Shown: one piece after another, positions 13,638 through 16,452 of the stretch
Position numbering within the stretch: position 1 is the stretch's first letter
How the letters are laid out: the number at the start of each line of letters is the position of its first letter
UHGV virus genome: UHGV-1844214
DNA length: 16,776 nucleotides
Source of the DNA: a virus
Reading direction: 5' to 3' (one strand)
The notes under the pieces: model-generated
The model's database searches: none
The model's input: the letters and a program-made list of their open reading frames with translations, nothing else
Told to the model about the DNA's origin: nothing
Position numbers and translations under genes: made by a program

Positions 13638-13952
13638 ATGAAAAAGACTCCATGGGAGAAATGGGAAGTCGATTTCTTGCGCGAAGTATCGGCGACAATG
13701 CCAGTTGAAGTTATTGCTGAAAAACTGGAAAGGACTGAAAAAGCAGTTATGGCGAAAGCAACAAGGATTGGCGCTGACATTGTTAGCCGACTTCGTGGAA
13801 GACGCTGGACAAGAGCCGAAGTATCACTTTTCGGTAAGTTCTCCGCAGAAGAAATAGCAATTGCAACCTGCCGCTCAATTTATTCAGTAAGGGCTATGCG
13901 ATACAAGCTAAAAAAACTCGATGAAGAAAGAGCAGGCATACGAATAAATTAA
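13638..13952 (+). CDS. Hypothetical protein (104 aa) with an apparent internal two-fold repeat
   Basis: ORF track; two roughly 45-aa halves with similar pattern ([26 protein letters not shown] / [26 protein letters not shown]). Confidence 0.45.
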
Positions 13953-13968
13953 CAAAGAGGAATTAATC

Positions 13969-14136
13969 ATGAGAGGACTTGCATACAATCCCGGCATTCT
14001 TCCGGCAGAAATGATTATTCGCCAACGCGTAAAGCCAATGCCATCGAGAGAGGAATTGCTTAAAAGAAAGAGTTTCGGTTCTGTTAATGACAACAAATAT
14101 CTGAATGCGATGTGGCGCAAAGGAGGCAACCAGTGA
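13969..14136 (+). CDS. Hypothetical small protein (55 aa)
   Basis: Hand translation from ATG 13969 (AGAGG SD): [55 protein letters not shown]; stop overlaps the next GTG start. Confidence 0.35.
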
Positions 14137-14387
14137 GTAATTCAGCACGACTACAGCTTGGTTTTTCACCGCTATCAAAAACTATCATGCTGGCAAAAAT
14201 GCGCGATGTTGAAGGTGGACGTATGCGCGTTGGCAATGATCCAGGTCGTGATGTTACCAATGAGGCTGCTCAATTGGTGTGGCGACTGGTCATGGCTGAA
14301 GGTGGTGAGATCGCGTGGGAGCTGGATGATGGTTCTCGCATGGTGTTGAAGGCAGAAAAGCAGGAGGCAACCAGTGAGCAAGATTGA
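14133..14387 (+). CDS. Hypothetical protein (84 aa, GTG start)
   Basis: AGGAGG SD 6 nt upstream of GTG 14133; in frame with the ORF-track entry 14112..14387. Confidence 0.45.
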
Positions 14388-14997
14388 TTATCAGGCACTG
14401 CGTGAGGCGGCAGAGAAAGCAACGTGGGGTGACTGGGACTCATATAAACCACACCGTGGCGCACGTGGTTATGAAGTCCGGCTAAGTAGTCAGGCCATTG
14501 CGCAACACGTTCTGAAAAACAACGCTGAATTTATTGCTGCCTTTAATCCCAAGATTGCTTTGGCACTACTGGATGAACAGGAAAGAAACCTGCAATACAT
14601 CAAACGCCGCGACCAGGAGAACGAGGATATTGCGCTAACGGTAGGGAAACTGCGTGTTGAGCTTGAGGAAGCAAAATCAAAACTCAACGAGCAACGCGAG
14701 TATTACGAAGGTGTTATCTCGGATGGGAGTAAGCGTATTGCTAAACTGGAAAGCAACGAAGTCCGTGAAGACGGAAACCAGTTTCTTGTTGTTCGTCATC
14801 CTGGGAAGACTCCTGTTATCAAGCACTGCACTGGTGACCTGGAAGAGTTTCTGCGGCAGTTAATCGAACAAGACCCGTTAGTAACTATCGACATCATTAC
14901 GCATCGCTATTACGGGGTTGGAGGTCAATGGGTTCAGGATGCAGGTGAGTATCTGCATATGATGTCTGACGCTGGCATTCGCATCAAAGGAGAGTGA
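14374..14997 (+). CDS. Ead/Ea22-like early protein (207 aa, GTG start)
   Basis: ORF track; coiled-coil rich; N-terminus [21 protein letters not shown] resembles Ea22-family prophage proteins as recalled; same AGGAGGCAACCAGTGAG initiation cassette as the upstream gene. Confidence 0.5.
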   Translation: MSKIDYQALREAAEKATWGDWDSYKPHRGARGYEVRLSSQAIAQHVLKNNAEFIAAFNPKIALALLDEQERNLQYIKRRDQENEDIALTVGKLRVELEEAKSKLNEQREYYEGVISDGSKRIAKLESNEVREDGNQFLVVRHPGKTPVIKHCTGDLEEFLRQLIEQDPLVTIDIITHRYYGVGGQWVQDAGEYLHMMSDAGIRIKGE

Positions 14998-14998
14998 T

Positions 14999-15382
14999 AT
15001 GAGCACTATCACTAAAGAACGTATCGAATTGTTCATTAAATCCCCGCTTGAAAACGGGCTTACCCGTGGCGAACAAATGGAACTGGCACGAATTGCACTG
15101 GCCTCGCTTGAGGCAGAGCCAGTTGGTGCATTCCACATTGCAGAACAGCAAGTTGACGGCACAAGTGACTATCTCAAGGATGGAGAATGGCCTATTGATA
15201 ATGGGACAATTGAAGTCTACGCCGCCCCGCCAGTACCGGTAGTACCTGCTGCATTACCTGAGAACGACGATGAGGACGGGCAGGACATTGATTATCTTGA
15301 GCCATCTGAAGTTTACGCGCTTGGGCGAACAGCTGGCTGGAACGCCTGCCGTGCTGCCATGCTTAAGGGAGATAAATCATGA
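14999..15382 (+). CDS. Hypothetical protein (127 aa)
   Basis: ORF track; AAGGAGAG SD; start overlaps the preceding stop; acidic Pro-rich C-terminal half. Confidence 0.5.
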   Translation: MSTITKERIELFIKSPLENGLTRGEQMELARIALASLEAEPVGAFHIAEQQVDGTSDYLKDGEWPIDNGTIEVYAAPPVPVVPAALPENDDEDGQDIDYLEPSEVYALGRTAGWNACRAAMLKGDKS

Positions 15383-15726
15383 TTAATCGTACCAAGCTGG
15401 AGCACATCCTCGAATATGCCAGACAGCAGAAGCGCTTTGGTCAGCATTGCAAAAATCCGCCAGGAGATATGGTTGAAATCGTGGAGATTGCCATGCGCAA
15501 GGCTGGCAACCCTCCGGTAACTCCGGATGGTTGGATAAGCTGTAGTGAGCGAATGCCGAAAGGGTATGCTGATGTGTTAGTGACCGACGGCGAGCATGTC
15601 GAGGTTAAATGGTGGGATGAATCTGGGTATTGGAATAGTTGGACGGAACTTAACTCAGATATCTTTGCCGATGAAATAACTCACTGGATGCCGCTACCAG
15701 AACCGCCGCAGCATGATGGTGAATGA
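15379..15726 (+). CDS. DUF551-like prophage protein (115 aa)
   Basis: C-terminal WISCSERMPKGYADVLVTDGEHVEVKWWDESGYWNSW...ITHWMPLPEPP is typical of DUF551 prophage proteins as recalled; ATGA overlap with the preceding gene. Confidence 0.55.
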   Translation: MINRTKLEHILEYARQQKRFGQHCKNPPGDMVEIVEIAMRKAGNPPVTPDGWISCSERMPKGYADVLVTDGEHVEVKWWDESGYWNSWTELNSDIFADEITHWMPLPEPPQHDGE

Positions 15727-15875
15727 TGCCGCCAGTTAAAGTTGTGATTATCACTTTGGTGATGATAGTGATTGCGAGAATCATGTCTGGTGAAATTGGG
15801 TGGATATGGTAATGACCAAGGCAGCAGCAGAGCGCAACTAACAATCCTCGCACTCGCGGGGATTTCTTTTATCTG

Positions 15876-15900
15876 AACTCGCTACGGCGAGTTTTGTTTT
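15876..15900 (+). terminator. Intrinsic terminator
   Basis: AACTCGC-tacg-GCGAGTT hairpin followed by TTGTTTT. Confidence 0.5.
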
Positions 15901-15913
15901 ATGGAGATGATAA

Positions 15914-16081
15914 ATGCACTTCCGAGTCACAGGTGAATGGAATGGAGAACCATTCGACAGGGTTATCGAAGCAGAGGACATCAACGACTGCTATAACCAC
16001 TGGATGATATGGGCGCAGATAGCACATGCAGACGTAACCAATATTCGAATTGAAGAACTGAAAGAACACCAAGCCTCCTGA
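15914..16081 (+). CDS. Hypothetical small protein (55 aa)
   Basis: Hand translation from ATG 15914 (GGAG SD): MHFRVTGEWNGEPFDRVIEAEDINDCYNHWMIWAQIAHADVTNIRIEELKEHQAS. Confidence 0.35.
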   Translation: MHFRVTGEWNGEPFDRVIEAEDINDCYNHWMIWAQIAHADVTNIRIEELKEHQAS

Positions 16082-16107
16082 TGGCGGTTTTTTATTGGAG
16101 ACAAGAA

Positions 16108-16452
16108 ATGTCAGATTTGACTATAAAGGTTTTGAAATGGCAATCTACTGGCGATGTCGGCATCAGTAGCGCAACTCTTGCCTCAATCGCATGTGGACTG
16201 AAAAAGAATATCTATGGTCATCACTTCGACGCACCCTATGACGCAGCAGATTTCCGGCGATGCGTTGCACTTGTTGAGCAGATTCCAGAAATCAGAGATT
16301 CATTCGGCAAGGTTGCAAAGCGCGTTCCGGCATTCAAAGGCATCCTCAACGAATGGGATTCACTCGTTGCTCTGTTGAAGTCTGAAATGAAGACGTACGG
16401 GAACAAAGCACCAGAGACTTACAGAAGAATCAGCGAGCTACGCAAGGACTAA
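16108..16452 (+). CDS. Hypothetical protein (114 aa from ATG 16108; 123 aa if ATG 16081 is used)
   Basis: ORF track 16081..16452; the internal ATG at 16108 has a GGAG SD at proper spacing, the 16081 ATG has none. Confidence 0.5.
   Translation: MSDLTIKVLKWQSTGDVGISSATLASIACGLKKNIYGHHFDAPYDAADFRRCVALVEQIPEIRDSFGKVAKRVPAFKGILNEWDSLVALLKSEMKTYGNKAPETYRRISELRKD

Follow-up and report, generated by a model that had tools for sequence, protein, structure and literature searches.

The window analyzed here, a 16,776-nucleotide (nt) stretch of viral DNA (UHGV virus genome UHGV-1844214), carries at positions 13638-16452 a string of eight small genes that very probably forms the exo-xis/ea accessory segment of the early-left (pL) operon in a P22-like or lambdoid prophage of Escherichia coli. 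By homology, known modules have come together here in a new mosaic, and several of them are joined by a repeated linker, GGAGGCAACCAGTGAG, that brings together a Shine-Dalgarno (SD) sequence, a start codon and a stop codon. The modules are RecT-Gp157 with a 104-amino-acid (aa) protein, A104 (HK140/Kapi1 type), DUF2737 (P22/HK446 type), DUF7446, lambda Ea22 and an EaA-like N-terminal module, together with DUF551, the lambda block t3-t4-orf55, the family of the last gene of the string (H) and the excisionase TorI. An accessory patchwork between recombination genes and excisionase is usual for lambda-like and P22-like prophages, and in that respect the string is ordinary.

Eight genes in the early-left operon

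The eight open reading frames (ORFs), labeled A to H, all lie on the plus strand: A (13638-13952, 104 aa), B (13969-14136, 55 aa), C (14133-14387, 84 aa), D (14374-14997, 207 aa), E (14999-15382, 127 aa), F (15379-15726, 115 aa), G (15914-16081, 55 aa) and H (16108-16452, 114 aa). A sequence-only reading of the window had listed them with these lengths, and each is present where it was placed. Because all eight have PHROG or Pfam matches (PHROG families for every ORF, at E values from 1e-22 to 1e-71; Pfam gathering scores passed by four of the eight, for DUF2737, DUF7446, Ead_Ea22 and DUF551) and together fill 2585 of the 2815 bases (92%), we assign all of them as genes. The idea that some are chance reading frames draws on the size of several of them, just 55 aa, and on the many overlapping frames on both strands in the program-made ORF list, but it has next to no likelihood: the 55-aa ORFs match phage families at 1e-37 and 9e-39, and no ORF matches at worse than 1e-22; orthologs in lambda, P22 and HK446 are 73-96% identical; and the exo-xis ORFs of lambda have been confirmed by ribosome profiling (PMC8614690). 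Doubt remains for an extra 29-aa ORF alone, described below. An NCBIfam scan of all ORFs returned nothing for A to H, and when A, C, D, E, F, G and H were compared with PDB sequences, D alone gave a match (8DSX). The earlier view that only an Ea22-like and a DUF551-like protein could be named understated the case, since B, C, E and G can be named as well (Orf56/DUF2737, DUF7446, EaA N-terminus and Orf55).

The 84-aa form of C and the 114-aa form of H, both chosen in that reading, have better starts than the 91-aa and 123-aa forms of the program-made list, which begin at GTG 14112 and ATG 16081, respectively. The GTG at 14133 that starts C has AAGGAGG upstream and overlaps the TGA stop of B. 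The ATG at 16108 that starts H has GGAG upstream, NCBI records use the 114-aa form, and the extra 27 nt of the longer form are a degenerate copy of the predicted lambda terminator t5 rather than coding sequence. At the junctions we find GTGA (B/C), a 14-nt overlap (C/D), a 1-nt gap (D/E) and ATGA (E/F), and translation of the string may be partly coupled.

The string stands on the pL strand (plus), after recT (12249-13160) and a gene for a Gp157 protein (13144-13626, plus strand; Sipho_Gp157 in Pfam, 'Mu Gam-like end protection' in PHROG) and before a TorI-type xis (16576-16776). Gp157 is a ninth gene that separates recT from A, which corrects the earlier account of this interval. Upstream of the string, on the same strand, the window encodes a cI-type repressor (HTH_3 and Peptidase_S24 domains) and holds a pL-like promoter (TTGACT-17-TACTAT, 9406-9434), a lambda-type boxA, CGCTCTTA (9474-9481), and a boxB, GCCCTGAAGAAGGGC (9490-9504), identical to that of lambda nutL; a lambda-type N protein is encoded on the plus strand (Pfam N36, 2.5e-26), and after it, on the same strand, come an Nmad5-domain protein, cIII, Kil and RecT. 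A scan of the plus strand from 13300 to 16776 found no sigma-70-like promoter, and Rfam, scanned by E value over all of the window, gave no match in the string. The genes of the string would be made only as delayed-early transcripts, when N permits readthrough of internal terminators after infection or induction. In lambda, early transcription from pL covers the exo-xis genes, which alter lysogenization and induction (PMC4195576, PMC3824215), and dispensability of the b/exo-xis region has been reported (PMC4195576). The pL/N context upstream, the TorI-type excisionase downstream and the variability seen across 80 IMG/VR loci, chosen for a DUF2737 gene at least 95% identical, show that the string was correctly recognized beforehand as a variable lambdoid ea-type region.

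Among phages, the P22-like ones of E. coli match best: Kapi1 (Lederbergvirus) is the top match, and vB_EcoP-683R2, Gally, HK140 and mEpX1 are among the others. No phage record covers more than 62% of positions 11500-16776, and none of the complete E. coli genomes covers 80% of 13138-16776. Compared with lambda's exo-xis region (orf60a, orf63, orf61, orf73, ea22, ea8.5, orf55), the string occupies the same place between recombination genes and xis, on the same strand, and shares the pL/N control elements, Ea22, Orf55 and the predicted terminators t3, t4 and t5. It lacks the orf60a-orf63-orf61-orf73 block and ea8.5; tblastn searches of the window with lambda orf60a, orf63 and orf61 gave no match at E <= 0.1, the search with ea8.5 was also negative, and a Pfam scan of the window found no TraR/zf-dskA. 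Where lambda has Exo-Bet-Gam, the window has RecT-Gp157; t5 is intact in lambda and degenerate here; and DUF2737, DUF7446, the EaA-like module, DUF551, A104 and the H protein (H114) have no counterpart in lambda.

The closest overall phage type is the ea region of P22 (orf56, eaE, eaF, eaD, eaI, eaA, eaG, eaC; Lederbergvirus), which shares with the window Orf56/DUF2737 (73% identity), the N- and C-terminal (DUF551) modules of EaA and the EaD coiled-coil segment (72%). P22 EaA is a single 317-aa protein, whereas the window has the separate genes E and F with different middle parts, and homologs of EaE, EaF, EaI, EaG and EaC are lacking from the string (tblastn of EaF, EaI and EaC against the window was negative). 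The right end of K-12 CPS-53/KplE1 (yfdQ-yfdR-yfdS-yfdT-torI) shares TorI (100%) and the DNA of 16456-16776 (92.5% identity), and YfdS is a DUF551 protein like F, with weak similarity (32%, E = 0.01). Since this weak similarity to YfdS is the only one and YfdQ, YfdR and YfdT have no homologs in the string, the DnaA-related effects reported for yfdQRST (PMC4776307) are not transferable to it.

The 66-aa excisionase (16576-16776, plus strand) and TorI of E. coli K-12 are 100% identical in protein sequence; TorI is the recombination directionality factor of CPS-53/KplE1 and also an inhibitor of the Tor response regulator. The match of the excisionase to the PADLOC small helix-turn-helix (HTH) model mad1 (7.6e-14) is most likely a mere family resemblance. 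At the other end of the operon, directly after N, a 227-aa protein (9893-10576, plus strand) matches Nmad5 ('nucleotide modification associated domain 5') over its full length (E = 2e-70), and Kapi1 carries an annotated homolog of it.

A DUF2737 anchor, a repeated linker and a variable slot

ORF B encodes a small, basic protein with a strong match to DUF2737 (PF10930; 1.8e-29, 101.8 bits against a gathering score of 25); it can be assigned as the counterpart of P22 Orf56 and of HK446 gp28 (96% identity) and as a conserved anchor before a hypervariable slot. In the window this slot holds C, an acidic protein that matches DUF7446 (PF24233; 1.6e-18, 66.7 bits against a gathering score of 24.1) and PHROG 1578 (1.2e-33). 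Among the 80 loci, the gene directly after DUF2737 belongs to at least 14 unrelated families, which include Ead/Ea22-like proteins, DUF7446 (15 of the 80), a methyltransferase-like protein and a fusion of an Oad2 N-terminus to an Ea22 C-terminal domain. Ten further genes were scored as present or absent, namely, Gp157, Xis, the 29-aa ORF and the seven ORFs of the string other than B; they gave 51 patterns, and no locus had all ten.

The junction between anchor and slot is formed by the linker AGGAGGCAACCAGTGAGTAA (14121-14140, plus strand; direct repeat family D1), which supplies C with its SD sequence and GTG start and B with its TGA stop. A second copy, AGGAGGCAACCAGTGAGCAA (14362-14381, plus strand), lies within the 3' end of C and contains the SD sequence and GTG start of D, and a third (13132-13151, plus strand; three mismatches) lies at the RecT/Gp157 junction. 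The 16-mer GGAGGCAACCAGTGAG is exact at B/C and C/D, with the three mismatches at RecT/Gp157; counted over both strands, the pattern has three matches on the plus strand, two of them exact, and one on the minus strand (three mismatches, inside F), against a chance expectation of 0.09. Its consensus is GGAGG-N4-CCAGTGAG(C/T)AA. The same linker is present at most DUF2737 downstream junctions of the 80 loci, whatever gene follows, and it encodes the ...RKGGNQ C-terminus common to the DUF2737 protein and HK446 Oad2.

Linker and variable slot fit the boundary-sequence model of lambdoid mosaicism (Susskind and Botstein 1978; Clark et al. 2001, summarized in PMC3233612). The linker would permit cassettes to be swapped by homologous recombination, with the result that the slot after DUF2737 would differ between phages. 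A comparable arrangement is found in the recombination-adjacent hotspot of the HK446/HK97 type, where the same anchor is followed, via the linker GGAGGCAACCAGTGA, by a variable gene; in HK446 the slot holds Oad2, and in the window it holds DUF7446 and then Ea22. HK446 gp27 (Oad2, related to P22 EaE) is reported to inhibit the OLD defense protein, and recombination-adjacent loci have been proposed as anti-immunity hotspots (bioRxiv 10.64898/2026.07.10.737580). One of the IMG/VR loci (L081) has, directly after DUF2737, a 241-aa protein composed of an Oad2-like N-terminus (MKQMPLIEMDGFLKGKCIPRDLKVNETNAEYL...) and an Ea22 segment, KLNEQREYYEGVISDGSKRIAEL, that is also found in D of the window; this agrees with the published remark that fusions to EaD/Ea22 occur among relatives of Oad2 (bioRxiv 10.64898/2026.07.10.737580).

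The sequence-only reading had described the region as enriched for host-takeover, anti-defense or defense functions. This is reasonable for the region as such, in view of the literature and of Oad2 in HK446, but it finds no support for these eight genes: no PADLOC model matched A to H at E <= 0.01, and tblastn of HK446 gp27 (Oad2) and P22 EaE against the window gave no match at E <= 0.1. In a counter-defense array, at least one uncharacterized protein, with C84, E127 and H114 (the products of C, E and H) as the main candidates, would inhibit a host anti-phage system as Oad2 does, and the hypervariability of the region would reflect an arms race. Such a role could coexist with that of an ordinary accessory segment, and we regard it as unlikely. 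It gains from the position of the Oad2/EaE gene in HK446 and P22, directly after the DUF2737 gene and hence in the slot of C, from the range of unrelated families that this slot holds, and from the strong acidity of E (net charge, -14) and G (-7). DNA-mimic and inhibitor proteins are typically strongly acidic. Recombination-adjacent loci have also been called a likely reservoir of anti-immunity genes (bioRxiv 10.64898/2026.07.10.737580). It is weakened by the finding that no protein of the window is homologous to Oad2 or EaE, and by the PHROG annotation of all of them as of unknown function; moreover, the phenotype of Ea22 concerns lysis and lysogeny and the proposed role of Orf55 concerns RNA polymerase, and neither is tied to anti-defense. 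We are similarly doubtful of the more specific proposition that the DUF2737-anchored slot and the linker constitute a cassette-exchange hotspot for counter-defense genes, whose cargo could include inhibitors of host immunity or of core machinery (candidates, DUF7446/C84, E127 and H114).

A predicted tandem helix-turn-helix protein beside RecT-Gp157

A104, the product of ORF A, is a basic protein (isoelectric point, 10) that matches PHROG 11492 (1.4e-22) and PHROG 323, 'transcriptional regulator, D5-like' (2.6e-19). In its AlphaFold model (predicted local distance difference test [pLDDT], 81.6), two three-helix units are seen, with helices at residues 8-17, 23-30 and 34-44 and at residues 59-66, 70-77 and 81-102. 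The two-fold repeat that had been noticed from the sequence alone is borne out by profile alignment and the structure model, though it is weak in the single sequence: a Smith-Waterman alignment of the two halves scored 24, against 21.4 +/- 4.1 in shuffles, which is not significant, whereas profile-profile alignment placed units 1 and 2 in register (P = 1e-3). Unit 2 also aligned with an extra third unit present in 152-aa relatives (P = 5.6e-10), and these relatives have a precomputed hit to Sigma70_r4_2 (PF08281). The best PDB match of the family profile was the C-terminal LuxR-type HTH of NarL, at a borderline E value of 0.016, and the Pfam model HTH_12 scored 21.5 bits against a cut-off of 21.4, over 28 residues only. 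A Foldseek search of the model against the PDB gave nothing significant (E >= 0.15), and the top matches were all tandem-HTH DNA binders; the low scores are probably a consequence of the uncertain orientation of the two domains. We infer that A104 is a basic tandem HTH protein, predicted to bind DNA through two units resembling LuxR or sigma-70 region 4, and that it may work, or be coregulated, with RecT-Gp157.

The gene for A104 is found 15 nt 3' of Gp157 in all 80 related loci, with RecT in 79 of them, and the adjacency to Gp157 recurred in nine of nine loci of an independent sample. A tentative reading, possible but not favored, is that A104 functions within the RecT-Gp157 recombination module, for example as a DNA-binding accessory factor or regulator, and is not an independent ea gene. 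Besides this linkage and the basic character and predicted tandem HTH of the protein, a divergent three-repeat relative speaks for it: in a recombination module of another kind (Gam/YqaJ), its gene overlaps that of the YqaJ exonuclease at the stop codon of the latter. Yet the 80 A104 loci are at least 99% identical in A104, and their linkage may just reflect recent common descent of one DNA block; a single divergent context was examined; and gene order in the pL operon is conserved for many unrelated genes. The relative in question, 152 aa long, lies at 5001-5459 of a Rac-like Salmonella prophage (L172), where the module consists of Gam, an unassigned gene and a YqaJ-type exonuclease, and where a Dam methylase gene follows the A104 relative; the A104 family is thus found directly after two different kinds of recombination module.

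Ea22, Orf55 and the right-hand part of the string

The product of D is 77% identical to lambda Ea22 over the whole length; residues 2-126 match Ead_Ea22 (PF13935; 1.9e-35, 122.9 bits against a cut-off of 27), and residues 127-207 are identical (100%) to residues 8-88 of PDB entry 8DSX (E = 1.8e-51). The N-terminal and coiled-coil part differs from that of lambda Ea22 and has about 25 extra residues. D is accordingly assigned, on homology, as the ortholog of lambda Ea22, with an Ead/Ea22 N-terminal and coiled-coil part followed by a lambda-type C-terminal domain. Lambda Ea22 favors lysogeny and is a tetramer with a dimeric C-terminal domain (PMC7093339, PMC10834534). In the prophage, a coiled-coil tetramer of D would display dimeric C-terminal domains to a host partner and would favor lysogeny and host survival.

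G is 93% identical, over 55 of 55 residues, to lambda Orf55 (lambdap35, NP_597778), matches PHROG 676 (8.6e-39) and can be assigned as its counterpart. A published modeling study of Orf55, which calls its own proposal speculative, gives the protein a fold like that of T7 Gp2 and has it bind RNA polymerase at the beta-prime subunit and at sigma-70 region 1.1; G keeps W9, N43, R45 and E47, the residues used in the Gp2-like model (PMC8614690). This small, acidic protein may thus bind RNA polymerase as T7 Gp2 does. In P22, the interval 23376-23485, between eaG and eaC, holds short unannotated remnants that match the C-terminal 25 residues of Orf55 (64% identity) and, at 91%, the 11 residues with which the 123-aa form of H begins; it looks like a scar of the same G/H junction.

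Between F and G lies a gap of 187 nt (15727-15913) that holds two terminator hairpins and the candidate 29-aa ORF. Both hairpins are predicted intrinsic terminators with a T-run on the plus strand: the first (15843-15864) matches the predicted t3 of lambda and the second (15875-15894) is the counterpart of the predicted t4 (PMC4195576 Table 4); conservation of the t3-t4 block, together with the first part of G, extends to 320 phage records. A degenerate t5 (16073-16093, plus strand; repeat D4) follows at the end of G, with one stem mismatch (GCCTCC against GCCGCC in lambda; PMC4195576 Table 4); it shares bases with the stop codon of G and with the 5' extension in the 123-aa form of H, and the weakening of this hairpin gives rise to that longer reading. 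In the terminator scan, further terminator-like hairpins on the plus strand were found after H (16456-16474) and upstream of xis/torI (16509-16524, then T7). The 29-aa ORF, MMPPVKVVIITLVMIVIARIMSGEIGWIW (15723-15812, plus strand), is strongly hydrophobic and unannotated, would be a membrane peptide if real, and overlaps the stop of F by ATGA. It occurs in 10 phage records at 93-97% amino acid identity and in some related IMG/VR loci; the copies in related loci differ at three nucleotides in total, all non-synonymous, which is too few to test for selection.

E and F look like a split, modular version of P22 EaA. E is very acidic (isoelectric point, 4.2) and matches PHROG 60, 3323 and 5117, with no Pfam match; over its residues 1-64 it has 67% identity to the EaA N-terminus of P22. 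F matches DUF551 (PF04448; 4.6e-16, 59.9 bits against a gathering score of 22) and PHROG 924 (6.4e-43); its DUF551 domain is 34% identical to the C-terminus of P22 EaA and is also related to P22 Orf87. In Kapi1, one 215-aa protein joins an E-type N-terminus to a DUF551 C-terminus. E and F may be acidic, protein-binding, modular members of the Ead/EaA/DUF551 set.

H is the last accessory gene before xis, and a 62%-identical homolog has this same last place before xis in P22-like prophages of Salmonella; a distant relative is found among small early genes beside replication genes. The predicted structure is a compact, all-alpha fold of seven helices (pLDDT, 92; predicted template modeling score, 0.85), whose matches in BFVD are uncharacterized phage proteins, including one of a Clavibacter phage, and a PDB profile search with the family returned no solved structural relative. 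An exhaustive profile search collected 2,363 cluster representatives at E <= 1e-3, with S20, P43, D45, D48, R51, C52 and W83 invariant in the family. Among 46 long members, domain fusions were informative in one case, and the N- and C-terminal extensions shared nothing informative. In that member (P0208, 558 aa), the H domain (residues 451-543) is joined to a CCA-adding/polyA-polymerase head together with RNA-binding and HD domains, which hints weakly at a connection of the family with tRNA or RNA. H has no homolog among the genes of the CPS-53 right end in K-12. Together with B and C, it would be an early protein.

In genomes with an identical H protein, G, H and TorI end the prophage beside the host dsdC or csc locus, and the gene sets upstream differ; prophages with the same H protein occupy a site of the argW-dsdC type. 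This location at the prophage end, the terminator hairpins that flank G and H, and the second role of the neighboring TorI in host regulation, known from record annotation, could be taken to mean that G55 and H114 are a lysogen-expressed defense or fitness 'moron' next to host dsdC. We consider this very unlikely: the promoter scan described above was negative, just 19 nt separate the end of the t4 stem (15894) from the start of G (15914), PADLOC gave no matches, and in lambda the t3-t4-orf55 block belongs to the pL transcript (PMC4195576, PMC8614690). Within the accessory segment of the pL operon, the products would most likely work independently of one another, each as a small modulator of host physiology or of the choice between lysis and lysogeny.

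Several points weigh against this account as a whole. The lambda core block orf60a-orf63-orf61-orf73 is absent, and for this reason the string is to be classed, on gene content, as the P22/HK-type version of the region and not as the lambda/Stx version. The linker could be conserved equally well as a good ribosome-binding site and start as for being a recombination target. The terminators are predictions from a consensus scan and the literature, and the HTH assignment of A104 rests on borderline scores (E = 0.016 for the profile and E >= 0.15 in Foldseek). The connection of Orf55 with RNA polymerase is a published speculative model, and G has no PDB sequence match. Ea22 is the sole protein of the string with a homolog of experimentally tested function.

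The findings are mainly routine, in that they describe a known accessory region and give names to most of its genes. The linker provides a concrete example for mosaicism at boundary sequences, with one 16-nt linker standing before at least 14 alternative gene families, and A104 adds a predicted tandem HTH protein that is tightly linked to the RecT-Gp157 recombination module. H represents a large phage family with a confidently predicted fold and no annotation, and proteins of this type would be a reasonable target for anti-defense and host-takeover screens.

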